Source of the DNA: a virus
Strand: one strand, 5' to 3'
Length of the DNA: 64,000 nucleotides
Virus record (IMG/VR): IMGVR_UViG_3300045988_122291
Coordinates: 50,076-114,075 of that record
The translations under genes and the position numbers were made by a program. This document shows positions 295 to 56,624 of the stretch, one piece after another. Below the pieces are notes generated by a model. The model saw only the letters and a program-made list of their open reading frames with translations, did not search any database and was not told the DNA's origin. How positions within the stretch are numbered: the stretch's first letter is position 1; each line of letters starts with the position of its first letter.

Positions 295-488
295 TCTCCA
301 AAAATCATAATATATTTAGTTCCATGTTCGGGGTCATGCTTGCGTAACCAATCCTTAAATTCCTTGTCAGTAGAACAACGATACATCATATTTTGTATTT
401 CGTTCAAGTTTTGACGAATTGTGTCAAGGTCTTTGCGAACGCCGTTGATTAAAATTAAAATATCATTGCAAGATTTTAGGTTGACCAT
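291..488 (-). CDS. hypothetical protein (65 aa)
   Basis: Same-strand ORF, stop overlaps start of 10..294. Confidence 0.5.
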   Translation of the reverse strand: MVNLKSCNDILILINGVRKDLDTIRQNLNEIQNMMYRCSTDKEFKDWLRKHDPEHGTKYIMIFGE

Positions 489-648
489 GTTTCTTTTTCC
501 TCTCGCTGTTTTTCTCTTTCCAGTAGCTCTAAAAGAATAGTATAAAGCGCTACATCTCGTGAGCTATATGCGTGATTTGTTCCTCGAATTGGTTCGGGCT
601 TTAAGTATTCCTTACATTCTTTGATAGCTTCGTTAATTGTCAATTATA

Positions 649-873
649 TCACTCCTTTCTAATATCAATACCAGCGTATCTTAGAATATCGTATAAATCT
701 TCGCTTAAATTGCCCACATAATCGCCATTTTCATCATAAAAGCTGTATGAAGTATAAGGCTTTGCTGTGATACCAGTGGCATCATACAACTTAGTGAAAA
801 ACACTTCGTCAACGCCATCGTATTCAAGATAGTCGTTTAATTCATTGAATTGCTTTTGAGAGATTGTTCTCAT
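649..873 (-). CDS. hypothetical protein (74 aa)
   Basis: Same-strand ORF; 4-nt overlap with 870..1115. Confidence 0.5.
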   Translation of the reverse strand: MRTISQKQFNELNDYLEYDGVDEVFFTKLYDATGITAKPYTSYSFYDENGDYVGNLSEDLYDILRYAGIDIRKE

Positions 874-1115
874 TCTAATTCCTCCTGCAAGTCCATATTC
901 ACTGTTTCAGTACCACAAGCGTTCGGCTGTACCTTATACTCAAAGCCATACTGTTTCTCATAACCTTGCAACACACCTTCGATAGCTTCATAGCCTGTAT
1001 CGAACCTATGAACATCATGGTTTGCCTTGTCAATTAGCTGTTCTGGGTCAATTTCATCTTCACATTCAACAATGTGATAGTGCTTAGTTAGTTCAACAAT
1101 TAGATACTTAGCCAT
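870..1115 (-). CDS. hypothetical protein (81 aa)
   Basis: Same-strand ORF; overlap-coupled to neighbours. Confidence 0.5.
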   Translation of the reverse strand: MAKYLIVELTKHYHIVECEDEIDPEQLIDKANHDVHRFDTGYEAIEGVLQGYEKQYGFEYKVQPNACGTETVNMDLQEELE

Positions 1116-1305
1116 TGGTTTTCTCCTTTAGTGCGTCGATAATATTAGCAATTCCCTTTGCACAATCTTCGCACACCTCTGGATAATTCCTCGTGTGTGG
1201 AGCACGGCACATTCTATTTTTGCTAATAATCGTAATATTATATACGTTTACTTGCTCAAGTGCAGACAGTTCCTTACCGCATACGTCACAAAAACATTTA
1301 ACCAT
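1108..1305 (-). CDS. small zinc-ribbon protein (65 aa)
   Basis: Two CxxC pairs (CDVCGK, CEDCAK); start moved to ATG 1305 behind AAAGGAGAAAACCA SD (ORF track starts at 1428 without SD). Confidence 0.5.
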   Translation of the reverse strand: MVKCFCDVCGKELSALEQVNVYNITIISKNRMCRAPHTRNYPEVCEDCAKGIANIIDALKEKTNG

Positions 1306-1561
1306 TGGTTTTCTCCTTTCCATCTTTAATCGGATATTTTTGGAACATATTATATTGCCAAAACTCATTAACTGGACATAGATACATTGGTGTTTTGAAG
1401 ATATAAAACATTTCACCAGTATTTTCATCTAAAGCAAAATGACTATGCTCATTCCAAATTAACTTAAATTGTTTGCCGAATTGTTCTTTTAGCCATTCTT
1501 CTTTAATCTTGTTTTTGCCATGATTTTCGCCCACTCGTGGCTGATATTTAAACCTTTTCAT
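1298..1561 (-). CDS. hypothetical protein (87 aa)
   Basis: ATG 1561 behind AGAGGA SD; 8-nt overlap with next gene. Confidence 0.45.
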   Translation of the reverse strand: MKRFKYQPRVGENHGKNKIKEEWLKEQFGKQFKLIWNEHSHFALDENTGEMFYIFKTPMYLCPVNEFWQYNMFQKYPIKDGKEKTNG

Positions 1562-1572
1562 TTTAATCCTCT

Positions 1573-1863
1573 CTAATTTCGCATACATCCCATTGTTCTA
1601 TCTACAACTTCTTCAACTTGATACTGAATGATTTTTGCGATTGGAACATTTCTATAAAGAATGAAATGTGCAATTTCGTTGTTATCGCACTTGTTGCATA
1701 AATCTTTAACTGCTTCTTCTTGTGTATTAAATTCACATGAGCAAATATGTCCTTTAGTAATATTTACAAAAGAATATTTTTTAGTAAATTTATGTTGCAT
1801 AATCGTACACACACATTTAGTATCATCATTCTTTGTCACAACAATTATTGGCAGGAAAACCAT
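1573..1863 (-). CDS. hypothetical Cys-rich protein (96 aa)
   Basis: Same-strand ORF in array. Confidence 0.5.
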   Translation of the reverse strand: MVFLPIIVVTKNDDTKCVCTIMQHKFTKKYSFVNITKGHICSCEFNTQEEAVKDLCNKCDNNEIAHFILYRNVPIAKIIQYQVEEVVDRTMGCMRN

Positions 1864-1896
1864 TATTTACACCTCTTTTAATTGATTGATTATATT

Positions 1897-2634
1897 TTAC
1901 CTTACATCAATCGCTTTGTCAATACGCTCTTTGGCGATTTCAAAATAATTTTCATCAAGCTCCATACCGATGAAATTACGATTTGTGTTGACGCAAGCTA
2001 CGCCTGTACTGCCAGACCCCATACAGTTGTCGAGAACGGTCATTCCTTCGTTGGTATAAGTTTTAATCAGCCATTCAAGTAGGGCTACTGGCTTCTGAGT
2101 GGGATGTAAAGCACATTTTTGTTTATCAGTTGAAAACGTTAATACGCTTGTAGGAAATCGTTCTGTACTATCATAAGTAGTTAAATTATACTCTCCATAA
2201 TCTAATGTTTTAATACAGTTGCGTTTTTGATTTGCGGTGCTTGTTTTCCTTTGATGTCCGGTAGTTTTTTGAGGATTATATACTGGCAATTTTTTATAAA
2301 AACAACATATATTTTCATGCGCTCTTAATGGCATACGATTAGCATTAAGAAATCCTGTTGGAGTGGTTTTGTGCCAAATTAGATTATAACGCCACATTTT
2401 CTTATTACTGTTCATTAAATCAGCCATAAACAAGCCGTCAGCAAATAACGCAATCATTCCATGTTCTTTAATAATCCTATTATATTGTTTCCATAAAGCG
2501 TCTAAAGGAAGAACCGTATCCCATTTGTTTCTGGCTGTGATTCCATAAGGCAAATCACATAGAATCATATCCACCGACTGGGAGGGGATATGGGGCATAA
2601 GTTCAAGGCAATCGCCATTCTTAATATCAATCAT
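1897..2634 (-). CDS. DNA methyltransferase (N6-adenine/N4-cytosine, beta class)
   Basis: N-terminal catalytic ILCDLPYG (DPPY-type) motif and C-terminal SAM motif LDNCMGSGSTGVAC. Confidence 0.85.
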   Translation of the reverse strand: MIDIKNGDCLELMPHIPSQSVDMILCDLPYGITARNKWDTVLPLDALWKQYNRIIKEHGMIALFADGLFMADLMNSNKKMWRYNLIWHKTTPTGFLNANRMPLRAHENICCFYKKLPVYNPQKTTGHQRKTSTANQKRNCIKTLDYGEYNLTTYDSTERFPTSVLTFSTDKQKCALHPTQKPVALLEWLIKTYTNEGMTVLDNCMGSGSTGVACVNTNRNFIGMELDENYFEIAKERIDKAIDVR

Positions 2635-2647
2635 GTTTGTTCTCTCC

Positions 2648-3112
2648 TTAGTTAATCTCTCTAAAATCCGTAATTACAGGGTCTCCACACCCATGCTCAT
2701 AAAACTTATGCACATAGAAGAAATATGTGTTAAGCGCATCTTTGACCTTATAAATGATATTAAAGTGCGTATTAAAATCCCAATCTGTCGGCTCACAAGC
2801 CATGTCTACCTTATACCAGTCCTTGGCAAATACTTCGGCGTGTTCTTCAAGCCAGTCTGGTGTGATTTCTTTTACACAGCAAGCATCATAAGAAAAACCT
2901 ATATCTTTAGACCGAGAATGAACTACGGTATAAGAAGTGTATTCATCATCACTGTTTTTCGTAACCGTGCAAATATGTCCCCAGTCACCTATGCGGCGAG
3001 AAACGCCCAAAATTTTCGCATGGTCAGGAAAGAAGTTTACAAACCCTTCATGCTTTTTGGCTTCTTTCAGCGCTTCAATCCACGGTTTGATGTATACTTT
3101 CATAGTTTCCAT
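2648..3112 (-). CDS. hypothetical protein (154 aa)
   Basis: Intact ORF with SD GGAGG upstream. Confidence 0.6.
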   Translation of the reverse strand: METMKVYIKPWIEALKEAKKHEGFVNFFPDHAKILGVSRRIGDWGHICTVTKNSDDEYTSYTVVHSRSKDIGFSYDACCVKEITPDWLEEHAEVFAKDWYKVDMACEPTDWDFNTHFNIIYKVKDALNTYFFYVHKFYEHGCGDPVITDFREIN

Positions 3113-3121
3113 AATTAAAAA

Positions 3122-3168
3122 CCTCCTTGATTTGATACTATTGTACCATTATCAAGGAGGTCTGTCAA
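3122..3168 (-). promoter_or_regulatory. sigma-A-type promoter nested in a terminator-like hairpin (module A)
   Basis: Minus strand TTGACA (3168-3163) N17 TACAAT (3145-3140). Spacer carries CCTCCTTGAT (3160-3151), complementary to the SD arm ATCAAGGAGG (3131-3122), which is followed by TTTTT and ATG 3112. Confidence 0.6.
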
Positions 3169-3185
3169 GCATTTATTTTAAGTTT

Positions 3186-3542
3186 TTAGAGAGAATTATA
3201 GCCAGAATTTTGTTTAACCAAATCTTGAATACCTTCTGACAGCACTTCATACATCATTTCTGCGTCATCAGTTGTCCAATATTCATCACGAATCCTGTAT
3301 TTAACCACACAATCTACGCCATAATTTGTTAGAGCATCTTTGAATTGCTTCGCTAATTCTTTGCCATATACTGCTGGTTCGCCCATAATGGTTTTCACGC
3401 CATCCTTAGGCACAGAAACATAGTATGTTCCAGACAGTGAAGCGGTATAGTTACTGGGTTCTTGCTGTATATAAAGCCCCATTATATATGTTTTTACGAT
3501 AGTGGAAGTAAGTTCTAAATCTTTTTGTTGCTTTTCGTTCAT
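3186..3542 (-). CDS. hypothetical protein (118 aa)
   Basis: Intact ORF directly downstream of the helicase gene. Confidence 0.6.
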   Translation of the reverse strand: MNEKQQKDLELTSTIVKTYIMGLYIQQEPSNYTASLSGTYYVSVPKDGVKTIMGEPAVYGKELAKQFKDALTNYGVDCVVKYRIRDEYWTTDDAEMMYEVLSEGIQDLVKQNSGYNSL

Positions 3543-3545
3543 TGC

Positions 3546-5774
3546 TTAGTCCTCCTTCAACATATCTTTCAGCCAAGTATCTCGTGTAGTTTCTTCTTGC
3601 ACTTTCAGGGCATCTCTCAGCACATCTGTATCACTAATAACAATTAGCTTATCACGAGAGCGTGTCATAGCTACATAGCACAAGTTACGAGATAGTAGAC
3701 GTTTATGTGACTGGTCGGCAAGGAAAATTACTGCCTTTGCACTCGACCCTTGGCTCTTGTGTGTAGAAATACAATAACCCAGAATCAAGTTTCTAAGGTC
3801 AGCACCTTCATAGACACCGTAGCCGTTCTCAAATTCGACAATAAGCGCATACCCTTTATCAGTTTCCATAACTTCGCGCACATAACCAATATCACCATTC
3901 ATTACTTCGATAGGGAAAGAAGGGCTAAAAGAACCTTCATCATTCAGCGCAACAGCGGTCATGCGATAATTGTTCTTAGTGTTTAGTACCTTATCGCCCC
4001 ACTTAAACTGAATCTTACCACCCTTGTTGTTATCTTCATATTCAACAGGCGTATAGTCCTTATCGTTGAAATGTGCTTGGATAGCACGATTGATTGCTAC
4101 TGAGCCAGCTTCACCCTTGTTAAACGGCGAAAGAATCATAATATCGTCCTTAGTATATCCTTCATCGAGCAAATGCTGATATTCTGTCATCGCTTGCTTA
4201 ATAGGATTTGAAATCGGCTCAAACTCATAATCGTCATACTTTTCTGCTATATGGTCAATATTACCGTTACGAGTATCAGTTGCAATCGTGATTAGACCGC
4301 TTGTAGAATAGCGAAAAATCTTATTTAGACTTGCCACTGGTACAATTCCACTATTGATAACATCAACGATAAAATTGCCACATTGAATAGATGCTAACTG
4401 TGCAGGGTCACATACAAATACAAGTTTGCATTTATAGCCAACCTTCTTGAGAAGTTGTGCCATAAGGTGTACGCTTACCATTGAACTCTCGTCCACAATA
4501 ACAACACCACGATACTGCATACACTGACCTTCTTGTTCATCCATGCTATGCTGTGCAAGAAAACGATGAATAGTAGAAGCCTTACGCCCTGTGCTATTAG
4601 CCAATACTTTACTTGCAATACCAGTAGGTGCTAATAACATATAGTCTGCGCACATATCTTCCAACATACGAACAAGCGCTTTGGTAGACGCTGACTTACC
4701 CGAACCACTATAACCACGAAGGACACAAATATTCTGCTCCCAAGTATTATACAGCACTTGCATCTGCTCGTCAGTACACTTAAAGCCGTCAACTTCTCTG
4801 AACTTTTCAAAGTCTGGCTTGCTCATAGTGTATTCTGTTTCAAAGATATTGCCTTGTAGCAGTCTATCTTTAATATGTTTTGTAATCGTTTCTTCAGCTT
4901 CATAAGTGTCAATCAACGCCGAATAACCAGTAGTTTCATCATGATGAATAAAACGACAACCGTTTACTACTTCTGGAATATGCTCTTTGCATTCTGGAAT
5001 CATTTCTTCTGCCATATAACCGAGAACTTCTGCTTCAATGCGTGTATCACCTTCAAGTTCGTTCTCATGTAGAATATTAACACAGCCATATTCACAGCGA
5101 AGTTTGCTGTTTTTTAGGTCAGGATAGCGTTTCAACACTTCTCTATCACTCTTAGCAAACGACCAGTTAATAACATCGTGATAAATACGGTAAGGATTTT
5201 CTTCAAAGTCTTGCTGAAGCAGTTCTGGACTCGCGTATTTGTCCGAAAGTTTCTGTACATCTTTGTCTTGCGTGATACCCAGTTCAGCACAAACGGGGAA
5301 GAAAAGAATGGATTCAAGGTTCTTCTTAATTTTGTCAATATACATTTCAACACGAACCTTGCCTACGTTGTAAATGTTATGATAATCAATATTTTTTTCT
5401 TCACCGCGAAGCACCATTTGAACAAAATGAGGATATGCTTCATGCACACGTTCAGCTTGAATATACTCCATCATCGTGCTTAGAATAGATATTTCTTTTT
5501 CTTCTTCAACTACAATCTCGTCTTTCTCCATCTTTAGACCCGGATAACCGACAAGAATATAACTTGCTGGACGTTTGGCGTTCTGATTAGGACGAATAGT
5601 AATTTCAACTTCATCACCTTCCTTAAAACCAAACAGATTGCTACCAGAGATAGAGAAACCACCCCACTTATCAAGTTCCATATTATAGTTTCCAATGGGT
5701 TTACAGCCCAAAATACGGAACTCATCAAGATAATTGACGAATACTTGCTTTCTAATTTTGCATTTAACGTCCAT
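3546..5774 (-). CDS. SF1 DNA helicase, RecD/Dda-like
   Basis: Walker A GYSGSGKS, Walker B VVIVDESSM, TIHRFL, C-terminal STHKSQGSSAKAV; start set at ATG 5774 behind GGAGG (ORF track: 5834). Confidence 0.85.
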   Translation of the reverse strand: MDVKCKIRKQVFVNYLDEFRILGCKPIGNYNMELDKWGGFSISGSNLFGFKEGDEVEITIRPNQNAKRPASYILVGYPGLKMEKDEIVVEEEKEISILSTMMEYIQAERVHEAYPHFVQMVLRGEEKNIDYHNIYNVGKVRVEMYIDKIKKNLESILFFPVCAELGITQDKDVQKLSDKYASPELLQQDFEENPYRIYHDVINWSFAKSDREVLKRYPDLKNSKLRCEYGCVNILHENELEGDTRIEAEVLGYMAEEMIPECKEHIPEVVNGCRFIHHDETTGYSALIDTYEAEETITKHIKDRLLQGNIFETEYTMSKPDFEKFREVDGFKCTDEQMQVLYNTWEQNICVLRGYSGSGKSASTKALVRMLEDMCADYMLLAPTGIASKVLANSTGRKASTIHRFLAQHSMDEQEGQCMQYRGVVIVDESSMVSVHLMAQLLKKVGYKCKLVFVCDPAQLASIQCGNFIVDVINSGIVPVASLNKIFRYSTSGLITIATDTRNGNIDHIAEKYDDYEFEPISNPIKQAMTEYQHLLDEGYTKDDIMILSPFNKGEAGSVAINRAIQAHFNDKDYTPVEYEDNNKGGKIQFKWGDKVLNTKNNYRMTAVALNDEGSFSPSFPIEVMNGDIGYVREVMETDKGYALIVEFENGYGVYEGADLRNLILGYCISTHKSQGSSAKAVIFLADQSHKRLLSRNLCYVAMTRSRDKLIVISDTDVLRDALKVQEETTRDTWLKDMLKED

Positions 5775-15675: not shown

Positions 15676-16029
15676 TTATGAGATTTCAAGTGTGCCATAA
15701 GAGATTTCACCATAATCACCCAGAGAAGATAATTTTACGTCTACTTTGATAGAGAAACCATACTCATTACCTGTAGTAAATTCTTTGATAATTAAATGAA
15801 CACCACCATTTTGACATTGCATTAAAATATCACAAGTCTCTCCCGTATTAGACATGAGTTTCGGTGAAAGCAAAAATCGTGAATTGTAATAGTCTCTAAT
15901 GTAAATATAGCTTGTAGCAGGAACATAAAATTCTCTATAAAAATCAGACCCCATATACAAGTCGTCAATCTTCTTATAAATCATAGCCCCACTTGTTTTC
16001 TCAATTTTTCCAGCTACAATCGCGTTCAT
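15676..16029 (-). CDS. MNGIVTGK-family paralogue P1 (117 aa)
   Basis: MNAIVAGKIEKTSGAMIYK ... ISYGTLEIS; shares termini with eight other ORFs. Confidence 0.7.
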   Translation of the reverse strand: MNAIVAGKIEKTSGAMIYKKIDDLYMGSDFYREFYVPATSYIYIRDYYNSRFLLSPKLMSNTGETCDILMQCQNGGVHLIIKEFTTGNEYGFSIKVDVKLSSLGDYGEISYGTLEIS

Positions 16030-16129
16030 CGTACCACCTCCTTAGAGATGACACGGTTTACGTTACTGTGAAATGCCCCCCCCAAGTGAGCGCATAGTTT
16101 GGTAATTCATAATATTTTCTCCTTTGTTT
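16030..16129 (-). promoter_or_regulatory. poly-G uORF leader L1
   Basis: SD GGAGAA + uORF 16110..16063 (MNYQTMRSLGGGISQ*). G8 tract = C-run 16076-16083. The current frame stops 33 nt before the P1 ATG; the G7/G10 frame is open to the TGA overlapping ATGA at 16029. Confidence 0.6.
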
Positions 16130-16411
16130 TTAATCTTTCTTAGGCGTAGTATAAGACTTAGCGTTTTCACTGTCGCCCATACCAAGAACACCATTTTGTG
16201 TAGTCGGGTCAACAAGTGCGTTCCATACGTTGACACAGACAAGGAAGAGACAGTAAGGATTACTGATAGTACCCTTCAGCACGTTGAGCACGCCTGCCCA
16301 TGTGGTCAAATCTGCCGCTGTTAGACCTGCGTAAGCAAGTGCAGTAGCGAATGCACCAAGAATTACATTTACCCAAAACGCATAGTTTTTAATTCTCACC
16401 TTTAGATTCAT
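16130..16411 (-). CDS. holin (phage_holin_1-like)
   Basis: 93 aa, hydrophobic helices, polar tail DPTTQNGVLGMGDSENA; 1-nt overlap with endolysin stop. Confidence 0.7.
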   Translation of the reverse strand: MNLKVRIKNYAFWVNVILGAFATALAYAGLTAADLTTWAGVLNVLKGTISNPYCLFLVCVNVWNALVDPTTQNGVLGMGDSENAKSYTTPKKD

Positions 16412-18135
16412 TACTCTTCACTCCCATACATACCCACTCTATCGTTAATAACAAGAACTCGTAGCAAATCTTCACTTAGGTCAAGACCCTTGCCATTACC
16501 CTTGAGATAGCCCTTATTCACGAGCTTAATGATAGTGTCCTTACCCCAGTCTGGAACTGAAGCAATGCTATCATATACCTTATTGTACTTAGCGTACACT
16601 TCTTCAGCTACATTGCCAGCAACCTTCTTAGCTTCGGTCTGAGCAATAGCTGTGGTTTCTGCTTTAGTCAAATCTTCCACTCCTTTAACCATGTTTAGGA
16701 AATTAGTCCACTGTTCATAATGTCGCACGAAGGGGTCTGGACAATTACCTACAATAAATGTTTTTGTACCTTGGCGCACAAGAATATATCCTGTTGGCAC
16801 ACTTACACAAGACACTTTAGTTGTACGAGTTTTTACACTCTTCTGAACACCACCAATACTATAATTAGCTGTTAAGCGATCAATAGCAAGATAATCATAA
16901 CGAGTGCTTCTACCTAATCGTGTTTTGTTAGTACGATACCCCTTAGTCGCGCAAACAGCTTGTACAACGTCTAAGTTATTTTGAATAGAAGAAGTATAAA
17001 GATGTCCTGCTTCGCAACCGTCTACTTGTAAACATTCGTTCCAAAATACGTCATATTGGTGTTGATTCATTTCCAATAAATTATATTGGAAATGCTTATC
17101 TTTAAGCCACTGTTCACACCAATAGTAAAGGTCTGTGCCATAATTACGGTAACTTACACTACCATCTTTCTTGTTAGAAACAGTATAGTCAATCATTAGG
17201 TTATCAAGAATCTCTTTAACTCTATCAATCTTGCGTTGTTTCTTAACATGAAACTCAATGCCACATACATCTTGGTAAGTTCCCTTCATATAATGTCCGT
17301 CACCTTGTACCCATACAAGGAATCGAATTTCATCATCAGTGAGAGGTAAACCAGACCCAATATACATAGCACCGTTTTTAACTAAGTTTTGTCGAGAGCC
17401 TGTAAGCATATCTCCCCATAGTTGCTCACGCCATTTATATGTTCCAGTCTTTTTATTAAAATTATTGTTTGCCGCCCACATACGATGATTAGAAGTTGCT
17501 TCAAGACCATGACAGCTTAGAACTTCAGCTTCATAAGGCTCAACCACGCTACTAACAGCGCCAAAAGATAGTCTATCAGTATTAGTGTCATACTGCATAA
17601 CTTCTTCTCCAACCTTAATATCTCCAAGAGCCTTCCAACCTTCGCGTGTTAGAAGTTCGGTTGAATCCAAAGGTAAACAATACTTATGTGTAACATGATA
17701 GTGCATACATACATGCTTAATATCAACCCCATACTGTTCCATAAGCCATTGCACGAGCTTTACAGTACGCTTCTGGGTTTCCATAGTAATTACATATTCG
17801 CCATTCTTCCAGTCGCTGCACATTTCAATACCAATGGAATTAACGTTGCGACAGCTATTGTAATAATAGCCTGTTTCACTACCACAATGCCATGCAGTAT
17901 TAGCAAGGTTTACAGTCTGCCAAATTTCGTTCTCATCAACAAAGAAATGTGCGCTTGCATTAAGCCCACTACAACGAGCAAAATAATCTGCATTGTTCTT
18001 TGCAGTATCGCCCTTGCCAGCAGTAAAGTGAATAACAATCCATTGAATCTTATGCTTTACGCCATTCTTTGTGCGACCATACATAAAATTGGAAGGATTG
18101 CATTCCTTAAATTGAAAATATGGTTTTTCTGCCAT
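16411..18135 (-). CDS. N-acetylmuramoyl-L-alanine amidase endolysin (Amidase_2/PGRP) containing an intein; SLH-like C-terminus
   Basis: IVIHFTAG, AHFFVD, WHCG, HVTHKY|...|CPDPF; C-terminal VPDWGKDTIIKLVNKGYLKGNGKGLDLSEDLLR. Confidence 0.85.
   Translation of the reverse strand: MAEKPYFQFKECNPSNFMYGRTKNGVKHKIQWIVIHFTAGKGDTAKNNADYFARCSGLNASAHFFVDENEIWQTVNLANTAWHCGSETGYYYNSCRNVNSIGIEMCSDWKNGEYVITMETQKRTVKLVQWLMEQYGVDIKHVCMHYHVTHKYCLPLDSTELLTREGWKALGDIKVGEEVMQYDTNTDRLSFGAVSSVVEPYEAEVLSCHGLEATSNHRMWAANNNFNKKTGTYKWREQLWGDMLTGSRQNLVKNGAMYIGSGLPLTDDEIRFLVWVQGDGHYMKGTYQDVCGIEFHVKKQRKIDRVKEILDNLMIDYTVSNKKDGSVSYRNYGTDLYYWCEQWLKDKHFQYNLLEMNQHQYDVFWNECLQVDGCEAGHLYTSSIQNNLDVVQAVCATKGYRTNKTRLGRSTRYDYLAIDRLTANYSIGGVQKSVKTRTTKVSCVSVPTGYILVRQGTKTFIVGNCPDPFVRHYEQWTNFLNMVKGVEDLTKAETTAIAQTEAKKVAGNVAEEVYAKYNKVYDSIASVPDWGKDTIIKLVNKGYLKGNGKGLDLSEDLLRVLVINDRVGMYGSEE
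16744..17679 (-). other. intein (312 aa) with LAGLIDADG homing-endonuclease domain
   Basis: Block A CLPLDSTELLTREGWKALGDIKVGEEV, block B LEATSNHRMW, LVWVQGDGHY, terminal FIVGN followed by the +1 Cys of CPDPF; occupies aa 153-464 of the lysin. Confidence 0.75.
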
Positions 18136-18161: not shown

Positions 18162-18184
18162 AAGGGGAGAATATATCTCCCCTT
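18162..18184 (-). terminator. intrinsic terminator-like hairpin
   Basis: AAGGGGAGA / TCTCCCCTT arms with 5-nt loop, followed on the minus strand by TTTT. Confidence 0.55.
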
Positions 18185-18427: not shown

Positions 18428-18823
18428 TTATTCAAAGTAGCCTATTTCAATTTTATCAAAATAGTCACTCAAATAACCACTTAAACTTCTAATGTGTATT
18501 TCATCTCGGTCGGAATTATACCAAACTGAAAATAATGAGTAATTTTGCCTCGGATAGTTTTTGGGTGATACATAGAAATTATTTTCTTTGTCATCGCTAC
18601 TAATATCTCCCATAAAATTAGTGGGGAAAATAATAACTTCTTTTCCATCTGAAGTTTCTCTGTAAAATCTAAAAAGAATATTGTTTTTCGGCGTGCGATA
18701 TAAATTTGTATTGTATAGCGTTAAATTGTAATCATTCGGCATATTCCATGATTGTGTTACATGAAACACCATAGTGTCTCCGACACTTTTAGTTTCCTGT
18801 TTATTAGTGACAATAGCATTCAT
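18428..18823 (-). CDS. MNGIVTGK-family paralogue P3 (131 aa)
   Basis: MNAIVTNKQETKSVGDTMVF ... KIEIGYFE; own SD GGCGGTGA, no uORF, 19 nt after the P2 stop. Confidence 0.7.
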   Translation of the reverse strand: MNAIVTNKQETKSVGDTMVFHVTQSWNMPNDYNLTLYNTNLYRTPKNNILFRFYRETSDGKEVIIFPTNFMGDISSDDKENNFYVSPKNYPRQNYSLFSVWYNSDRDEIHIRSLSGYLSDYFDKIEIGYFE

Positions 18824-18842
18824 ACTGTCACCGCCTTTGAAG

Positions 18843-19145
18843 TTACTTTATGGAAATTCGATAGAATTTTGCATTTAATCCTTCTCTGTTGTTTGTTGCC
18901 CCCATTATATTTCCATTTTCGAAATATAAATGAACCGATGGTGCGTCTGGACTGACAGAAAAAGTTTTTCCGTCCCATTTTCCAATAGAGAAATCGTAAC
19001 TGTAAAGAATATAAACACAAGGGTCGTTCGCTTTTGGTGTTTCTATTACTGTTCCATGGTATTCTATCCAAAAAGAACTGTTGTACACTATTTCGAACTC
19101 TTTGCTTGTTCCTAATCCAATGGGCAAAGTAATAATTCCGTTCAT
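18843..19145 (-). CDS. MNGIVTGK-family paralogue P2 (100 aa, divergent)
   Basis: Starts MNGIITLPIGLG; preceded by leader L2. Confidence 0.6.
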   Translation of the reverse strand: MNGIITLPIGLGTSKEFEIVYNSSFWIEYHGTVIETPKANDPCVYILYSYDFSIGKWDGKTFSVSPDAPSVHLYFENGNIMGATNNREGLNAKFYRISIK

Positions 19146-19216
19146 TTACTCTGCCCCCCCCAGTTTAATCTGAAGAATGCTCATTGCTCAAATTCCTTTC
19201 TGAGCAATGAGAAGGT
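19146..19216 (-). promoter_or_regulatory. poly-G uORF leader L2
   Basis: uORF 19184..19146 (MSILQIKLGGAE*). G8 tract = C-run 19154-19161, length fixed by ORF-track coordinates. The TAA stop abuts the P2 ATG (TAAATG). The uORF start lies inside the 11-bp hairpin 19180-19211. Confidence 0.6.
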
Positions 19217-19591
19217 TTATTCAAAAGTGCCGATTTCTACTGAAGAAAGGTTATTTCTCATTTTAAAATTATCAGAAACTCCCAAAGCAAGTCTTATGCT
19301 GGGGTCTGAATATTTTTTTACAACCTCTACCCAATCTGCTTCGTTAGGCGAAAGATATGTCGCAATCGTCGAACTGTCGTTATCTACCATTACAAAGCGC
19401 ATTGAAATATAAGCTACTCTGTCACCAAAAGATTCTATTTTTAAGAAATAAGGTGGCTCAAGATAAGAAGTATTTGGCACATAAAAATACATGAGTGCAG
19501 TTGCTTCTGTAGGAACACTGCCTACTAAAGCAGTTTTCCATACCAAACTTCCAGCCTGTTTCTCTTGCTTACCAGTCACAATACCGTTCAC
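19217..19591 (-). CDS. MNGIVTGK-family paralogue P4 (124 aa, GTG start)
   Basis: (V)NGIVTGKQEKQAGSLVWK ... SSVEIGTFE. Confidence 0.7.
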   Translation of the reverse strand: MNGIVTGKQEKQAGSLVWKTALVGSVPTEATALMYFYVPNTSYLEPPYFLKIESFGDRVAYISMRFVMVDNDSSTIATYLSPNEADWVEVVKKYSDPSIRLALGVSDNFKMRNNLSSVEIGTFE

Positions 19592-19746
19592 TCTTGTGCA
19601 CCTTCTTTCGGTGCATACTTCTCATTGCTCAAATAATTTAGTGGGAGACTATGCCCCCCCCCAGTTGAAACTGAGGTTGACTTACAAATACACATTTTTG
19701 TGTCTCCTTTGTTATGTGTTGTTTGTAATTTGAGCAATGGGAAGGG
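19592..19746 (-). promoter_or_regulatory. poly-G uORF leader L3
   Basis: SD GGAGA + uORF 19695..19588 (35 aa). G9 tract 19654-19662, confirmed by the APPQ translation of the plus-strand ORF 19491..19733. Its TGA overlaps the P4 GTG (GTGA). SD hairpin 19597-19615. Confidence 0.65.
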
Positions 19747-20103
19747 TTAAGAAAATAATTCAAAACCTAAATTACTATATTCATTAGTAGTAATAGTATT
19801 GGTATTGAAATTTATGGTAAGCGTTGCAACTGAAGAGCTACCTATGCCATTAAGAGTGATAACCGATTGTTTATAAATAGCCCCTGTTTCATATCCAGAA
19901 CTGCTATTTATAACAATCGCATATTTCTCTTGAGGAAAAATCACACAATAGGTCGTATAATAACTACGATATGTTTCAGTAGCAATAACTGAATATTTAT
20001 CTATATCAGTAATCGTTGCATTACCATTGTAGTATTGCCGAACAGCAGAAGTTGGCACTTTACCACCAGTTGTTTCAATCTTACCCGTTACAATTCCGTT
20101 CAT
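19747..20103 (-). CDS. MNGIVTGK-family paralogue P5 (118 aa)
   Basis: MNGIVTGKIETTGGKVPTS ... NLGFELFS. Confidence 0.7.
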   Translation of the reverse strand: MNGIVTGKIETTGGKVPTSAVRQYYNGNATITDIDKYSVIATETYRSYYTTYCVIFPQEKYAIVINSSSGYETGAIYKQSVITLNGIGSSSVATLTINFNTNTITTNEYSNLGFELFS

Positions 20104-20262
20104 CCAACAGCACCAACTTTCTTCAGTGCTGTTCCATTGCTCAAATTAAAGTTTAGGAGAATGCTAACGCATTGCCCCCCCCCAACTGAAGTCAGGGTTG
20201 ACTGAATGTTAAACATAAATGTTCTCCTTTTGTATAGTTTTTATTTGAGCAATGGAAGGGAA
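20104..20262 (-). promoter_or_regulatory. poly-G uORF leader L4
   Basis: SD GGAGAA + uORF 20216..20100 (38 aa). G9 tract 20175-20183. Its TGA overlaps the P5 ATG (ATGA). Hairpin 20106-20133; 12-bp arms CCATTGCTCAAA 20134-20145 / 20244-20255. Confidence 0.6.
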
Positions 20263-20616
20263 TTACCAATAAATGAAAACTGCCATATTCGTTCCGACAT
20301 ATGTTAATGTCATTGCTGAGAAATCGACAGTATACAATGCTGAAGTTGAAGTAGCGGGAGAATAAAAAGTATAGACAGTATCGGTAATTATTTTTCTATC
20401 TTCCCAATCAACGGGTTGAGGGAGATATATGATATATTTTCCTTGTGGATATATCTCATAGCATCCGTGCGAACTTATATATGTTCTAATGCACCTTAAT
20501 TTAGATATATCGAAAGGAGAATTTGTTTTATCAATAACAGGTCTTTCTATGCTTGTAGGCACAGTATCACTTATACTTTGCTTTTCTTCAATTTTACCGC
20601 TAACAATCCCATTCAT
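20263..20616 (-). CDS. MNGIVTGK-family paralogue P6 (117 aa)
   Basis: MNGIVSGKIEEKQSISDTVPTS ...; C-terminus divergent. Confidence 0.7.
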   Translation of the reverse strand: MNGIVSGKIEEKQSISDTVPTSIERPVIDKTNSPFDISKLRCIRTYISSHGCYEIYPQGKYIIYLPQPVDWEDRKIITDTVYTFYSPATSTSALYTVDFSAMTLTYVGTNMAVFIYW

Positions 20617-20785
20617 ACAGTCACCTGCTTTCGGTGACTAACATTGCTCAAAAAGGACTTTCGCCCTATTAGGAAGTTATTGCCCCCCCCAAGTGAAACA
20701 TAAGTTCACTCAGAGAAAACTTGATACGCATGGTATCACTCCTTGTTATTTAATTGAGCAACGTGTGTGAAGGGTGGTTAAGTGG
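20617..20785 (-). promoter_or_regulatory. poly-G uORF leader L5
   Basis: SD GGAG + uORF 20731..20669 (MRIKFSLSELMFHLGGAITS*). G8 tract 20683-20690. The current frame stops 52 nt before the P6 ATG; the G9/G6 frame is open for 24 codons to the overlapping TGA. SD hairpin 20620-20638. Confidence 0.6.
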
Positions 20786-21127
20786 TTAGGAAATTTCGAG
20801 AATGCCAAGTTCTAATGAGTTCATACATTCGCTAAAAGGAATGAAACGTGAAGCAGAATTAGTTCGAACCATACAAGCGCCTTGCCACTGGCTACAATAA
20901 ATGTTGTCTGGTAAATCCAGTGTTATGTGCCTTTCATCATCTCGCGAAATCACGAAATTTTTCACGCAAATTAAAGTAATATTATTACTTTTATCTATAA
21001 TACGAATATACTTCAAAGCATTATAGTCAAAAGTAAAATTTGATTGACTTAAATCAATCGACTGTTCACTCTTAAACACCATACTACCAGCAGTCTTTTC
21101 AATCTTGCCAGTTACTATACCATTCAT
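20786..21127 (-). CDS. MNGIVTGK-family paralogue P7 (113 aa)
   Basis: MNGIVTGKIEKTAGSMVFKSEQ ... SLELGILEIS; ATG 21127 preferred over the GTG at 21130. Confidence 0.7.
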   Translation of the reverse strand: MNGIVTGKIEKTAGSMVFKSEQSIDLSQSNFTFDYNALKYIRIIDKSNNITLICVKNFVISRDDERHITLDLPDNIYCSQWQGACMVRTNSASRFIPFSECMNSLELGILEIS

Positions 21128-21250
21128 CACAAGACCTCCTTTCGGAGGTTGCCAATCCTGTTGCTCAAAGGAAAGGCATTTCCAATCATTAGGTTAGAAC
21201 AATGCCCCCCAAGTGAATGAGAGTTTTAGTCTTAATCATATGTATTCTCC
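21128..21250 (-). promoter_or_regulatory. poly-G uORF leader L6
   Basis: SD GGAGAA + uORF 21239..21189 (MIKTKTLIHLGGIVLT*). G6 tract 21205-21210. The G7 frame is open for 26 codons to the TGA that shares its A with ATG 21127. CCTCC-GAAA-GGAGG hairpin 21135-21148 buries the SD. Confidence 0.6.
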
Positions 21251-21679: not shown

Positions 21680-22343
21680 GCATAGCGTCCATCTGAGCCT
21701 TTGCAGAAGCCAATACCTTAACTTCTTGTTCTGCCAGCTTACCAGTTAGTTCAGTTGCAAGGGTTACTGCCTTAACAGCGTCCTTATCTTCACAGCTATT
21801 TACATACTGTTTTAGCAAGTTACCGTGTGTAGTCAGCTTAGTGATGAGCGTTTGCATACTCACGTACAAGCTGACAATATCAGCCTTTGGATAAATTACA
21901 CATTCCTTGCCGTCAGCATGGTAAGGAAATTCTTCAACGCCCATAACAACTGCATTAAAGATATTACCAATGTTGGCTTGGTCGTTTGCTGTTAGGCTGA
22001 AATGTTCATCACCATAAGAAGTCTTAACGTCAACGCCAGCATAAATAGTTTGCTCAACTGAATTGTTAAGAGAATTGATAACTTGACCACGAAGTTCTTC
22101 AATAGTCGGCTCATAAGGAGTAGGAGCTTCTTCCTTGTCCCAGTGAACCGTATTACCTACGCATTCCCAAATCTTATAATCTGACTTCTTGAGAGTGCAA
22201 AGTTCTTCGTCAATGTCAGTGACAAATCGAATTGTATCACCAAGTTCAATATCATGAACCTTATCAAGCGTAATGTAGCAACGTTCGGAATTGATGATAC
22301 CTTCTACATTTTCATATGTTTTCTTATTAGTAATTAGTTTCAT
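21663..22343 (-). CDS. tail-fibre-associated protein (DUF4376-like, tentative)
   Basis: 226 aa following the tail-fibre-like gene; FSLTANDQANIGN segment and C-terminal coiled coil. Confidence 0.45.
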   Translation of the reverse strand: MKLITNKKTYENVEGIINSERCYITLDKVHDIELGDTIRFVTDIDEELCTLKKSDYKIWECVGNTVHWDKEEAPTPYEPTIEELRGQVINSLNNSVEQTIYAGVDVKTSYGDEHFSLTANDQANIGNIFNAVVMGVEEFPYHADGKECVIYPKADIVSLYVSMQTLITKLTTHGNLLKQYVNSCEDKDAVKAVTLATELTGKLAEQEVKVLASAKAQMDAMLAKLA

Positions 22344-22741
22344 TAAACTACCTCACCTACTACTTGAACAGTAAAATCTACTGAAGGCTTTGTAGAGCCA
22401 GAAGTTCTTAGAGTCAAAGTATTCGTACCTGTTGTGCCGTAATCTGCAAGCAATGCAAATGCAGTTTTCTGATTAGCCGCCGCTGTTGCGTCAGAACTCG
22501 GCAGAAGATAAATAATTGGCTGATAGCGCATATTGATAGCAAGACCACTAATTGTTTGTGTTTGCTGATAAACACCGCCACTTGAACTCCAACCACCAGA
22601 ATAGAAAGTAGCTGTACCAAAAACGGTCTTGCCTACTTCAAGGTTTTGTCGTGCGCCTTGGGCAGTTGTTGCACCAGTGCCACCGTCAGGGATTGGAACA
22701 GGGTAAACGTAACCTTGCCCTGTTATTGCTCCATAACCCAT
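22343..22741 (-). CDS. tail-fibre-like protein (132 aa)
   Basis: N-terminal PDGGTGATTAQGARQNL motif, common at phage tail-fibre N-termini. Confidence 0.5.
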   Translation of the reverse strand: MGYGAITGQGYVYPVPIPDGGTGATTAQGARQNLEVGKTVFGTATFYSGGWSSSGGVYQQTQTISGLAINMRYQPIIYLLPSSDATAAANQKTAFALLADYGTTGTNTLTLRTSGSTKPSVDFTVQVVGEVV

Positions 22742-22795: not shown

Positions 22796-22824
22796 ATTAT
22801 ACCACATCCTTATACATTTGTCAA
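22796..22824 (-). promoter_or_regulatory. sigma-A-type promoter
   Basis: TTGACA (22824-22819) N17 TATAAT (22801-22796); 5'-UTR hairpin AGGCGA/TCGCCT at about 22768-22784. Confidence 0.55.
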
Positions 22825-26852: not shown

Positions 26853-26959
26853 GAAAAACTTATGGAATTTTTACTGATATTAAATTACCGCTAATATTTA
26901 GTGAAACAATGGTTTGTTGACATTTTCATCGCTAAAATAATGAAATTCTTGCTTCATAG

Positions 26960-27150
26960 ATTATAGCATTGTTATAATTGCTTTAGTCTTATACAATCTC
27001 CACAAGCGTAGATTATACTGTTCGGTTATGCCCTAACCTACTCGGTTATGCCCTAACCTACAGTTTATTTATAATTATTATGAATAAGCTATTTCAAGCC
27101 CTTTTTTCAAGATGTTAACACTTGCGTTAATATCTCTATCATGTTTAGTA
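26960..27150 (-). ncRNA. candidate TnpB omega/reRNA scaffold (bounds approximate)
   Basis: By analogy: TnpB guide RNAs derive from the 3' end of tnpB plus the right end of the element; no covariance model was run. Confidence 0.3.
27021..27060. repeat. tandem 20-bp direct repeat (2 copies, 19/20 identical)
   Basis: ttcggttatgccctaaccta / ctcggttatgccctaaccta, 18-57 nt downstream of the tnpB stop. Confidence 0.7.
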
Positions 27151-28187
27151 TGGCACTCAGGACACTCCCAAGTACGAACATCCAGATTCTTAACCAGAGG
27201 ATTCTTGTAACCACAGTAGCTACAAGTCTGGCTACTTGGGTACATAGTAGGGACACTGATTACCGTATTACCATACCATTCACCTTTATACTTGAGCATA
27301 GCAAAGAATTTAGACCACGAAGCACTTGCGATTGACCGCGCAAGATTATGATTACGCATCATACCTTTTACATTCAAGTCCTCTATGCAGATAGTTTGGT
27401 TTTCGCGTATCAGCATAGTTGACTGCTTTTGTAAAAAGTCATTTCTTTGATTAGTAATCTTTTCGTAGATACAAGCTAACTTAATACGTTGTTTATTACG
27501 ATTGTTAGAGCCTAATTGCTTACGAGAAAGACCGCGCTGTGCTCTAATGAGTTTACGAGCAGATTTCTCTAAAAACTTTGGATTAGGAATTTTGTTACCG
27601 TTACTATCTGTATAGAAATCTTTAATTCCCACATCAATACCAACAGTTCCATTTGCATTGTTCATAAGCTGTGGCTCAAAATCAACATTGAGAACTACGA
27701 AATATTTGCCAGACGGTGTTCTTTCAACAGTGACATTGTTAATATGCCCAACTTCCATAGATTGTTTAATTTTTATATATCCCAATTTAGGCAATCTAAT
27801 ATATTTCCCTACAATGCGAATAGTATTTACATGGTTAATCGTTCTATAAGACTGATAATTGTTATGTTTATTCTTAAATTTTGGATATTTAGACTTTTTA
27901 GCAAAGAATTTTTTATAACCTTTATCTAAATCTCTTAAAGATTGCTGCAGAGCAATAGAATCCAATTCTTTAAGAAAATTAAATTCTTCTTGTTGTTTAA
28001 GTGCCGTTAGCATGGCACAAGTTCCACTATACCCAACACTAATGCCATTTTTATAGGAATCTCTACGCATAACCAGACCTTTATTATACACAAGTCTGCA
28101 ACCGCCAAAAATTCGATTTATTAAATTTTTCTGTGTTTTATTGGGATAGACCCTGAATTTAATACCTTTTTGCATATAATTTCCCAT
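27078..28187 (-). CDS. tnpB: TnpB (IS200/IS605-family RNA-guided nuclease), no tnpA partner
   Basis: [11 protein letters not shown]-terminus; RuvC residues in GIDVGIKD and [11 protein letters not shown]; zinc finger CSYCGY...[18 protein letters not shown]. Confidence 0.9.
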
Positions 28188-32931: not shown

Positions 32932-33312
32932 TTATTCCAAAAATCCAAAAGTTAAAGATTTTAATAAACCAAAAGAAGAAGTTCCTGCTATATGTTGTTT
33001 CTCCCAATATATATCGTCATCATCACGTGTCCGGAAGCGGTAAAATTTAATACTTTCATAAATTGAATCATTTTCACCCAAAAGTTCAAAAGAACCACCT
33101 ACACTGAATGAATTTATAGACAGATAAGTATATGCTATTCCTGTTGGTTGTTGCATACCTATTCTTAGCGTATATTTATAAAATCTTCCAACCAAATCAT
33201 AATATCTTAATTCATACGGAGAGTTGTCATTCGCAACATCCCATACAGCAACTTCGTTAAATACCAAACTTCCGGCTGGCTTTTCCATTTTACCAGAGAT
33301 AATTGCGTTCAT
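32932..33312 (-). CDS. MNGIVTGK-family paralogue P8 (126 aa)
   Basis: MNAIISGKMEKPAGSLVFNE ... SLTFGFLE. Confidence 0.7.
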   Translation of the reverse strand: MNAIISGKMEKPAGSLVFNEVAVWDVANDNSPYELRYYDLVGRFYKYTLRIGMQQPTGIAYTYLSINSFSVGGSFELLGENDSIYESIKFYRFRTRDDDDIYWEKQHIAGTSSFGLLKSLTFGFLE

Positions 33313-33429
33313 GCAATCACCTCCTTACTGCTTACAGCGTTAAGCCGTATGCCCCCCCCAAGTGGAAACAAAGTTTACTAATTTAAACATAAAAATGCCC
33401 TCCTTTAATTTATGTTATGAGGAAAATCC
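33313..33429 (-). promoter_or_regulatory. poly-G uORF leader L7
   Basis: SD GGAGGG + uORF 33390..33340 (MFKLVNFVSTWGGHTA*). G8 tract 33352-33359. The current frame stops 27 nt before the P8 ATG; the G7/G10 frame is open to the TGA overlapping ATGA. Confidence 0.6.
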
Positions 33430-39973: not shown

Positions 39974-40169
39974 TATTTACCTCACTTATCAAATAAGTAA
40001 TTCAGACAAAAGTCTGTTGTGTAACCTTCGCCAATGTTGTAATAGCTTTTTACATTTAGCACACTGATTTAATGCCAAACAATAGAGCAAAGGACTAAGT
40101 TAAACATCCTTTGGTATTATAACTAAAACAACGTAGTCATTAAAGACTTAGGCTAATTAGAACTCTTAT
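39974..40169 (-). ncRNA. candidate IscB omega-RNA (bounds approximate)
   Basis: 196-nt non-coding gap immediately 5' of iscB, where IscB omega-RNAs are encoded; contains hairpins (CAGAC/GTCTG, TCACTTAT/ATAAGTAA). Confidence 0.4.
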
Positions 40170-41183: not shown

Positions 41184-41258
41184 TGGCACAAGACTTAGGA
41201 CTTTAACCTAAACGAACAGTTTTGGAGACTGTCATGCTAACAATTACATCAGTCTTGC
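41184..41258 (-). tRNA. tRNA-Trp: tRNA-Trp (anticodon CCA)
   Basis: Hand-folded cloverleaf: acceptor GCAAGAC/GTCTTGT, anticodon arm ACAGT-CTCCAAA-ACTGT, T arm TTAGG-TTAAAGT-CCTAA, discriminator G, encoded CCA. Confidence 0.7.
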
Positions 41259-41261
41259 ATA

Positions 41262-41336: not shown

Positions 41337-41452
41337 AAATTGTCCCGCGACCCAAAGGTACGTCATGTGCACTTGACTTGTTTTCCACTGGGAATCGCAG
41401 TACAGTCATGAGCTAAACCGCAATAAACGTGAACTTAACAAACGGGGAACAT

Positions 41453-41770: not shown

Positions 41771-41778
41771 ATTTGATT

Positions 41779-56160: not shown

Positions 56161-56520
56161 TTATTCGAGTGTTCCAAGTTCAATAGATGTATAATAATCA
56201 TTTAGATTTAAAAAATCTTGGTCATTATTGTACATTGTTATATTTACATAACTATTATTGGTAGGTCTCGTAAATCGCGTCCAAACCGTATTATTATAAG
56301 GCTCTGGATAGAAGCAAAACCAATATTTAAGGGCAGCCGGGTCAGTACAAAAAGCACAAATAATAGAAATTAAATTATTTTTTGTCACAACTTTAATATA
56401 CTTATTAGTTATATTTGTATAAAAAGTATAATCTGTATTATATAAATCAGCTATTTGTTCAGTCTTAAACACCAAACTTCCTGCTTGCTTTTCCTGCTTA
56501 CCAGCAACAATAACATTCAT
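56161..56520 (-). CDS. MNGIVTGK-family paralogue P9 (119 aa)
   Basis: MNVIVAGKQEKQAGSLVFKTEQ ... SIELGTLE; ATG 56520 preferred over the TTG at 56526. Confidence 0.7.
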   Translation of the reverse strand: MNVIVAGKQEKQAGSLVFKTEQIADLYNTDYTFYTNITNKYIKVVTKNNLISIICAFCTDPAALKYWFCFYPEPYNNTVWTRFTRPTNNSYVNITMYNNDQDFLNLNDYYTSIELGTLE

Positions 56521-56624
56521 CAGCAATCACCACCTTTCGGCAGTCGATTACTTAACCAATGCCCCCCCCAAGTGGCGAGGTGGTTTGATAATGCTAAATG
56601 TTCTCATAGGGAACACTCCTTTTC
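56521..56624 (-). promoter_or_regulatory. poly-G uORF leader L8
   Basis: SD GGAG + uORF 56607..56548 (MRTFSIIKPPRHLGGALVK*). G8 tract 56562-56569. The G7/G10 frame is open to the TGA that shares its A with ATG 56520. CTGCC-GAAA-GGTGG hairpin 56530-56543 covers the SD. Confidence 0.6.

Follow-up and report, generated by a model that had tools for sequence, protein, structure and literature searches.

The window described here (the whole stretch of DNA analysed, 64,000 nucleotides (nt) in length, positions 50,076 to 114,075 of IMG/VR virus record IMGVR_UViG_3300045988_122291) belongs to a phage genome of approximately 114 kb and carries eight runs of G, each located in a short leader that precedes a different gene of a nine-member paralogous family. 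Each of these loci is likely to be a contingency (phase-variable) switch acting through translational coupling, in which the length of the G tract would determine whether ribosomes leaving the leader reach the start of the downstream gene, the frame of the regulated protein itself remaining untouched. We see an even chance that the loci form a modular frame-logic network of chainable gates and selectors, with at least eight independent switches and hundreds of heritable, reversible combinations of surface proteins, and that the same design in tail-fibre genes of other lineages represents a general class of host-range bet-hedging device; such a network would operate on one polycistronic mRNA and would need no recombinase, reverse transcriptase or change of protein sequence.

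Counted as C on the plus strand, which is G on the minus, runs of at least six occur eight times in the window, with lengths of six to nine (written G6 to G9). Words of seven G gave 16 overlapping matches versus 0.86 expected, and none of 100 shuffles reached 16. All eight tracts are found on the coding strand and in the same context: an AAGGAG-type Shine-Dalgarno (SD) sequence and an ATG open a reading frame of 10-14 codons which enters the tract. The distance from the tract to the start of the paralogue (the main start) is 8-77 nt, and the tract belongs to a separate open reading frame (ORF) outside the coding sequence of the regulated gene. Genes are named below by the position of their start; no leader precedes the ninth paralogue (start 18823). 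A comparison of the leaders with Rfam matched no family. The pentamer CACTT, found directly 5' of the tracts beginning at 56569, 33359, 21210, 20690 and 16083, is conserved and complementary to the main-gene SD AGGTGA, with which it pairs in the predicted fold of the 33312 leader.

The reading frames following the tract were recomputed programmatically for the eight window leaders and for a non-redundant set of 46 from relatives. One frame, in all cases +1 with respect to the main gene, is open up to a stop that overlaps or abuts the main start, the junction in this frame (hereafter ON) being ATGA, GTGA, TGATG, TAATG or TAAATG at every leader. All three frames stop before or at the main start, the sole long frame being a bypass frame (see below) that ends at the next start. 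Frame 0, the frame of the main ORF itself, has 1-3 stops between tract and main start in every case, so the tract cannot belong to a longer in-frame protein and there is no fusion to the main ORF; a model with the tract inside the ORF of a fusion protein was rejected on account of these stops in the in-frame extension.

This frame logic had been proposed in an initial annotation of the window, and most of its details were recovered. The coordinates of two upstream ORFs (20216..20100 and 19695..19588) are exact, the tract lengths are correct, and the fused stops are ATGA at 16029, 20103, 20616 and 33312, GTGA at 19591, TGATG at 21127 and 56520, and TAAATG at 19145. Three loci are in the coupled frame as claimed, namely 20103 (G9), 19591 (G9) and 19145 (G8). 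The other five (16029, 33312, 56520, 20616 and 21127) are OFF, with a stop 27-61 nt short of the main start, and a single-G change would turn each of them ON (loss of one G at 16029, 33312 and 56520, gain of one G at 20616 and 21127). The length of the open frame, given as 17-26 codons, has to be corrected to 13-25 codons past the tract. That the two remaining frames end early at every locus is true elsewhere (within 5-22 nt) and fails at the 19145 leader, where one frame runs for 110 codons.

The argument that 17-26 stop-free codons are very unlikely by chance did not survive. When the spans concerned (39-77 nt) were shuffled with conservation of dinucleotides, at least one of the three frames was open in 54-89% of the shuffles per locus (product 0.064); one open frame alone therefore proves little. 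A check of the +1 frame for stops across homologues, also suggested in the initial annotation, found it open from tract to start in 10 of 10 single-tract leader clusters (less than 70% identity to each other), with per-locus shuffle P values of 0.21-0.42 and a product of approximately 2.6e-6; such products treat paralogous or homologous leaders as independent, and their significance is overstated. Of the 12 leader types, 11 shut both non-coupled frames no later than 5-22 nt past the tract (P 0.01-0.12 each). The unusual features are thus this early closure, the constant +1 phase of the open frame and the stops in frame 0.

The ribosome-binding sites of the main genes are contained in stable secondary structures. 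Minimum free energies of the main-start region (-40..+6, 46 nt) lay between -9.5 and -17 kcal/mol in those window paralogues that have a leader and reached -20 kcal/mol in relatives, versus a mean of -4.6 +/- 3.1 kcal/mol for 60 other window genes. The SD (GGAGG or GGUG-) forms the 3' arm of a hairpin with a loop that is mostly GAAA(G). The 5' arms covary with the 3' arms (ACCUCC/GGAGGU, GUCACC/GGUGAC, UGCACC/GGUGCA, ACUGCC/GGUGGU, CACCUCGC/GUGGGGUG and CCUCA/UGAGG), and the pairing is preserved in at least six different stem sequences, each with its SD on the 3' side. The covariation is argued from per-sequence folds and these arm pairs; MAFFT followed by RNAalifold yielded no consensus fold of the hairpins, because the loop lengths differ. 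The junction stop varies as well: the TGATG of the window is TAATG in contigs L118 and L131 (L numbers denote sequences other than the window), and relatives with ATGGAT instead of ATGAAY, which have no built-in TGA, carry TGATG or TAATG upstream in every case. By this comparison the junction stop is conserved as a function, not as a sequence.

Within the tandem array, inverted repeats of 11-14 bp (CATTGCTCAAA/TTTGAGCAATG) are located around each upstream ORF start and tract; the leader with the repeat at 20135..20254 folds with z = -4.9. Leaders that come first in an array retain the 3' arm without a partner arm. The repeat may serve as an RNase III site or for insulation, or it may be the scar of a duplication. 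Two further RNA-based models were considered and rejected. Leader-peptide transcription attenuation would require alternative terminator and antiterminator hairpins and a U tract following the leader ORF, and the terminator scan of the segments between leader and main start gave no terminator (the sole match at a leader was the reverse strand of an SD hairpin); a G-quadruplex is not formable by a single run.

A second type of leader precedes gene 19145. With its tract 8 nt from the ATG, G8 yields a TAA abutting the ATG and G7 or G10 a stop in ATGA, while at G9 the leader enters a third state, overlooked in the initial annotation, with a frame that is open across the entire next gene. This bypass frame is the sole fully open alternative frame of 134 in the window (median longest open run 34.5 codons; 0.09 stops per codon). 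The same selector arrangement was found in seven instances in relatives, at 5-6 loci, each ending exactly in the ATGA or TGATG of the following gene; the traversed gene is called A and the following, leaderless gene B. Bypass frames are 100-137 codons long. Regarding six different genes A, the bypass (+2) frame had no stops versus a mean of 4.6-7.8 under synonymous-codon permutation, stop-free permutations numbered 0-6 of 5000 (0 of 5000 for the window bypass frame), and the +1 frame of the same genes contained 6-18 stops. The bypass frame is thus kept open by selection on synonymous sites. Some relatives have leaders with two tracts, in which one third of the tract-1 lengths would let ribosomes reach tract 2 (a gate), and tract 2 would direct them to gene A in two frames or along the bypass to gene B in the other (a selector); where tract 2 has decayed (L127/L128), the bypass frame is closed after 62 nt.

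Tract length differs in 8 of the 12 orthologous leader groups with at least two members (range G6-G10), with flanks in the variable groups that are 96-99% identical (0.7-4% divergence). L001:3367 (G8) and L075:1387 (G7) show one difference in 151 nt. The window leaders of 20616, 56520 and 16029 (G8 each) show two differences from L122 (G9; 149 nt), L007 (G7; 121 nt) and L134 (G9; 115 nt), respectively, and L127 and L128 have G9 and G10. In several of these pairs the predicted state is reversed by the change. Since length changes among near-identical orthologues outpace those of flanking bases, switching at the DNA level is indicated at least on evolutionary time scales. Read in the mRNA sense, every tract in the window and in relatives consists of G, and none of C. 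The switch by termination-reinitiation which the initial annotation had suggested is supported by all of these in silico tests (SDs, hairpins, junctions and tract variation).

IMG/VR was also scanned for AAGGAG-ATG-(24-48 nt)-G8, and the hits were filtered on frame architecture. Further cases with unrelated leader sequences were obtained from phages of 27-51% GC. L141 (1300-2750), a distant relative, has three tandem leaders at a locus syntenic with the window (fibre-like gene, CmpB-like membrane protein, array); leaders (MTKHRKIH-G9, G9 and G11) and paralogues (MALMS.GG...) have diverged, and the frame logic and SD hairpins are retained. In L158 the leader precedes a phrog_2712 tail-fibre gene, and L172 and L189 are further filtered cases. 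The unrelated phage L217 (minus strand of the locus, 300-5000) carries at least 11 tandem Gp10_C fibre-tip paralogues and seven G9-G10 tracts, some in leader ORFs and others near gene 3' ends, where the frameshifted reading stops at the next start. Per-locus shuffle P values were 0-0.04, for loci which had been selected by the filter; most of these cases have an SD hairpin, a feature outside the filter.

The nine paralogues comprise 100-131 amino acids (aa); both termini are conserved (the N-terminus as MN[GA]I[VI]xGK), whereas the central part varies. Two of them are situated among replication genes. Sequence searches against Pfam, PHROGs and PDB yielded no significant match. In an AlphaFold model of the 56520 paralogue (predicted local distance difference test score, pLDDT, 86), eight strands form a beta-sandwich, and the N-terminal tail, although conserved, is disordered. 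The array operon contains two tail-fibre-like genes and a membrane protein, followed by the array; 21663-22343 matches the tail-fibre family phrog_1348 (E 7e-9), and 22343-22741 has weak matches to tail-fibre PHROGs. From the model and this context, the regulated proteins are probably small beta-sandwiches, for which a role as fibre tips or adhesins is plausible. If the array is one operon, as its promoter and terminator suggest, gene-by-gene control would have to be post-transcriptional.

The following mechanism is proposed. The array would be transcribed as a single polycistronic mRNA, as the promoter starting at 22824 and the terminator at 18184 suggest, and the ribosome-binding site of every paralogue would be shut in a short hairpin with a GNRA loop, as judged from folding and from covariation between paralogues. 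Ribosomes would enter at the strong leader AAGGAG site and translate the 10-14-codon ORF into the G6-G10 tract. The exit frame would be fixed by slipped-strand length changes during replication of phage DNA; differences of this kind are seen among orthologues, and a corresponding rate is presumed. Ribosomes in two of the exit frames would stop within 5-22 nt, upstream of the hairpin, leaving the gene OFF or LOW. Those in the third (+1) would pass through the hairpin and stop at the main start (ATGA, TGATG, TAATG, TAAATG), so that the SD would be unfolded and/or reinitiation would occur (ON). In the second leader type, with the tract at the gene start, two frames would feed gene A and the third would bypass it to the leaderless gene B, making an A/B selector; in relatives, a gate tract and a selector tract would be chained within one leader. 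If the proteins are fibre-tip- or adhesin-like, a phage population would be a combinatorial mix of virion surface variants.

Several observations weigh against this reading, in addition to the overstated shuffle products. G8 is the modal length (approximately 27 of 46 leaders) and yet OFF for most leader families, and approximately 13 of 46 leaders (approximately 28%) are ON, which is about the expectation for a random frame; the ON and OFF states are themselves purely predictions from frame logic. An OFF length could be the commonest one if the genes are costly and rarely on, if mutation has reached equilibrium, or if ribosomal or RNA polymerase slippage on the tract supplies basal expression. 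The tracts are also the same in two 114-kb contigs from other samples, which match the window at 100% identity, and hypermutability within a population is thus a prediction. The SD of 33312 is only half sequestered (probability unpaired 0.48; start codon 0.98). The OFF stops of the short leaders (56520, 33312 and 16029) are located a few nt upstream of the hairpin, which terminating ribosomes could still open, so OFF may be low rather than zero. Gene B could also be reached from the stop of gene A itself, approximately 20 nt upstream. Regarding the proteins, the best Foldseek matches of the 56520 model were the T7 gp17 fibre tip and tail fibres or spikes, and they were weak (E 0.03-0.1, TM score approximately 0.4).

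The principal rival is slippage on the G run, which is unlikely as the whole explanation and may coexist with the coupling switch. According to this model the run is slippery for RNA polymerase or for ribosomes (re-pairing of Gly-tRNA on GGG GGG GG), all frames are fed in a set ratio without heritable switching, and tract length merely tunes the ratio of OFF, gene A and gene B. The predominance of G8 in spite of its OFF state would be accounted for, as would the restriction to G in the mRNA sense, the pairing of the tract with flanking C/U-rich segments and the hairpin that follows, a phage-encoded tRNA-Gly(UCC), and the identical tracts in 100%-identical contigs of two assemblies. What speaks against a fixed ratio is the change of tract length between near-identical orthologous leaders, far more frequent than change in flanking bases: programmed slippage sites are usually conserved in length, whereas the tracts range from G6 to G10 among orthologues. 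A trans-frame fusion with a coding 3' extension is not possible either, since the frames stop before or at the main start. The classical substrates of RNA polymerase slippage are runs of A or T, not of G, which also counts against a fixed ratio.

It is improbable that the bypass frame is a true overprinted gene whose product (leader plus approximately 110 aa) has a function of its own, beyond conducting ribosomes to the next gene. Selection to keep the frame open at six different genes A would be explained, while its end always coincides with the start codon of the next paralogue, the predicted product is basic, of low complexity and out of frame, and in L127/L128, with their decayed second tract, it is open for no more than 62 nt.

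An origin by chance or inheritance, with duplicated spacers, a +1 frame that follows passively from ATGAAY and ancestry, and main genes that use their own SDs, is already strongly disfavoured. It accords with the frequency of open frames in shuffles (0.54-0.89 per locus), the paralogy of the leaders and the largely accessible SD of 33312, and it leaves unexplained that in 10 of 10 clusters the +1 frame is open while the two others end within 22 nt, that the junction stop is maintained through different codons and positions, that bypass frames of 100-137 codons are stop-free relative to synonymous permutation, that the SD hairpins covary, and that similar architectures with unrelated leaders occur in phages of 27-51% GC. 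An invertible-DNA or recombination switch, in which the repeats CATTGCTCAAA/TTTGAGCAATG would serve as recombinase sites for a flipping segment (as in Gin/Cin, shufflons or Bacteroides invertons), agrees with inverted repeats bracketing approximately 95-110 bp at four loci and can be dismissed as very improbable, given a single orientation in all of more than 40 leaders from independent assemblies, no adjacent invertase or recombinase gene, arm pairs that tolerate G-U (20763/20642) or a swap of G-C to A-U as expected for RNA pairing, and dispersed leaders (56520, 33312 and 16029) with the frame logic but without the repeat.

Table 1. Positions of the paralogous genes, their leaders and associated elements in the window, with predicted states at the tract lengths given.
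Feature	Position	Strand	Remarks
Tandem array of six paralogues	18428..21127	-	100-131 aa; N-terminus MNGIVTGK
Array members	21127-20786, 20616-20263, 20103-19747, 19591-19217, 19145-18843, 18823-18428	-
Paralogue MNAIVAGK...	15676..16029	-	117 aa
Dispersed paralogue	32932..33312	-	126 aa; downstream of DnaB-like helicase gene
Dispersed paralogue	56161..56520	-	119 aa; downstream of RusA-like gene
Sigma-70-type promoter	22796..22824	-	Perfect (TTGACA-17-TATAAT, with TG); heads operon
Terminator-like hairpin and T run	18162..18184	-	End of array operon
Leader ORF of 20103	20100..20216	-	38 codons at G9, ON; SD AAGGAG 7 nt upstream; terminal TGA of ATGA
G9 tract, leader of 20103	20183-20175	-	ON at G6/G9; L134 and L001 orthologues G8 (OFF)
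Leader ORF of 19591	19588..19695	-	35 codons at G9, ON; terminal TGA of GTGA
G9 tract, leader of 19591	19662-19654	-
Short selector leader of 19145	19146..19184	-	MSILQIKLGGAE, then stop; at G8, ON: TAA abuts ATG 19145
G8 selector tract	19161-19154	-	8 nt upstream of ATG 19145; doubles as SD position of that gene
Leader ORF of 20616	20669..20731	-	G8 OFF, ON at G9; tract 20690-20683; ON-frame stop TGA 20615-20613; orthologues L001:3951 and L122:1175 both G9 (ON)
Leader ORF of 21127	21189..21239	-	G6 OFF, ON at G7; tract 21210-21205; ON-frame stop TGA 21129-21127 (TGATG)
Leader ORF of 16029	16063..16110	-	G8 OFF, ON at G7/G10; tract 16083-16076; ON-frame stop TGA 16028-16026; orthologue L134:8133 G9
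Leader ORF of 33312	33340..33390	-	G8 OFF, ON at G7; tract 33359-33352; ON-frame stop TGA 33311-33309; orthologue L129 G7 (ON)
Leader ORF of 56520	56548..56607	-	G8 OFF, ON at G7; tract 56569-56562; ON-frame stop TGA 56522-56520 (TGATG); orthologues L007/L008 G7 (ON)
SD-sequestering hairpin before ATG 20103	20106..20133	-	-13.7 kcal/mol
Equivalent SD hairpins	19615-19597, 20640-20618, 21161-21129, 16055-16030, 56560-56515	-
Long-range inverted repeat CCATTGCTCAAAT...ATTTGAGCAATGG	20135..20254	-	Encloses upstream ORF initiation region and tract; RNA stem 13-14 bp
Equivalent inverted-repeat pairs	19623-19739, 20642-20763, 19182-19209	-
Bypass frame	18820..19153	-	110 stop-free codons; +2 frame of gene 19145-18843; ends in TGA 18822-18820 = ATGA of 18823

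The window is transcribed almost entirely from the minus strand, with a GC content of 34-43%. It encodes a replication and recombination set (large DNA polymerase, Dda/RecD-like helicase, RecJ, DnaB, primase and RusA) as well as lysis genes (Amidase_2 endolysin and holin). A megablast search of INPHARED phages with 9 kb of the window gave no match, and the paralogue profile had no hit among the GTDB species genomes. Relatives are metagenomic contigs only (87-114 kb); some of their proteins fall in a metagenome-assembled genome labelled Lachnospiraceae, and the phage is considered to be of gut type. An exact-protein lookup returned only 100%-identical contigs. Retrieval based on the endolysin added four unrelated high-GC phages (L002-L005) with the endolysin as their sole shared gene, and a generic scan for CACTTG7..CA produced mainly chance matches plus just four related contigs.

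Some neighbouring elements deserve mention. The endolysin (16411-18135, minus strand) has a 311-aa insertion at residues 154-464, absent from the 95%-identical homologue L134:7015-7797 (260 aa), with intein-like junctions THKY/C...VGN/CP (Cys1, Asn-Cys+1); Pfam detected Amidase_2 only. At 38717-40190 (minus strand) a HEARO RNA (RF02033, 100 bits) directly upstream of a 418-aa HNH-type ORF constitutes an element resembling IscB/omega-RNA. A TnpB-like transposase ORF (phrog_506; 26900-28187, minus strand) occupies the site at which L001:12249 and L006:7037 have a two-tract leader and two genes; beside it a leader remnant (caaaccattgtttcact) persists at approximately 26915-26900, the G tract being gone. 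A tRNA cluster (41184-45208, minus strand) comprises Trp, Gly-UCC, Gln, Lys, Met and Leu, with a seventh tRNA found by Rfam; the tRNA-Gly(UCC) would decode the GGG codons of the tracts through wobble.

The most similar systems are the hypermutable polyG tracts in receptor-binding protein genes of Campylobacter Fletchervirus phages (Sorensen et al. 2021, Cell Rep 35:109214, as cited in PMC12823448 and bioRxiv 10.1101/2025.10.21.683753). The known phage polyG contingency loci are all inside coding sequences, namely in Fletchervirus receptor-binding proteins, T2 agt and T4 rIIA (bioRxiv 10.1101/2025.10.21.683753; PMC12823448). Both systems have several G runs per genome (G7-G11 in Fletchervirus, G6-G10 here), and in both the run length would set the expression state of receptor-binding genes (putative ones here) and give mixed progeny. 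In Fletchervirus, however, the tract is part of the coding sequence and the protein is truncated, whereas here it occupies a separate leader ORF, the regulated frame is untouched, the output would be translational coupling, and A/B bypass selectors and two-tract gates are present.

Classical translational coupling is exemplified by f1 genes VII/IX, MS2 coat-lysis and rpmI-rplT, for which RNA unfolding and reinitiation are the two accepted models, and coupling does not survive when the first stop codon is placed far ahead of the hairpin (PMC12548453). The present loci share the overlap of stop and start (ATGA/TGATG) and a downstream SD in a hairpin which the upstream ribosome must traverse. They differ in that the upstream cistron is a dedicated, non-conserved leader and that a homopolymer makes the position of its stop genetically unstable; phase variation and coupling set by frameshift are not mentioned in that review. 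Variable repeats in transcribed leaders, outside promoter and ORF and with an RNA-level effect on expression, are also known from bacteria: a leader G-repeat of Helicobacter pylori tlpB is targeted by the small RNA RepG (PMC8295292), and Haemophilus influenzae hmw1A has a heptamer repeat in the 5' untranslated region that involves RNase III (PMC12721329). Those repeats act through small-RNA pairing or through hairpin length and RNase III with graded output, whereas the repeat described here would be translated, with an output that depends modulo 3 on the reading frame.

The host range of phages is diversified by DNA inversion (Gin of Mu, Cin of P1) or by diversity-generating retroelements. Both routes are listed in PMC12823448. 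The loci of the window would resemble them in a stochastic choice among adjacent alternative tail-fibre tips (putative ones here); unlike in those systems, no recombinase or reverse transcriptase would take part, the choice would be made by the frame after homopolymer slippage, and the cassettes would switch independently. Searches of the open-access literature gave no description of bypass frames or of a leader ORF in which a repeat controls coupling to the following gene, and the system is therefore classed as a contingency locus combined with translational coupling.

If the proposed reading is true, it would add a third route of tail-fibre diversification beside DNA inversion and retroelements, at a cost of approximately 100 nt per gene and with the protein left intact. 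Two known processes would be put to a new use, in that homopolymer slippage sets the position of the leader stop and thereby gates coupling, and there would be a functional reason for an overlapping frame that spans an entire gene and whose own product may be of no use. For annotation, gene callers miss such leaders and bypass frames, and the tracts resemble assembly errors. The design is compact and portable, could be tested with simple reporters and may be of use in synthetic biology. Regarding gut-phage ecology and phage therapy, a clonal stock of such a phage could be a mixture of host-range variants.

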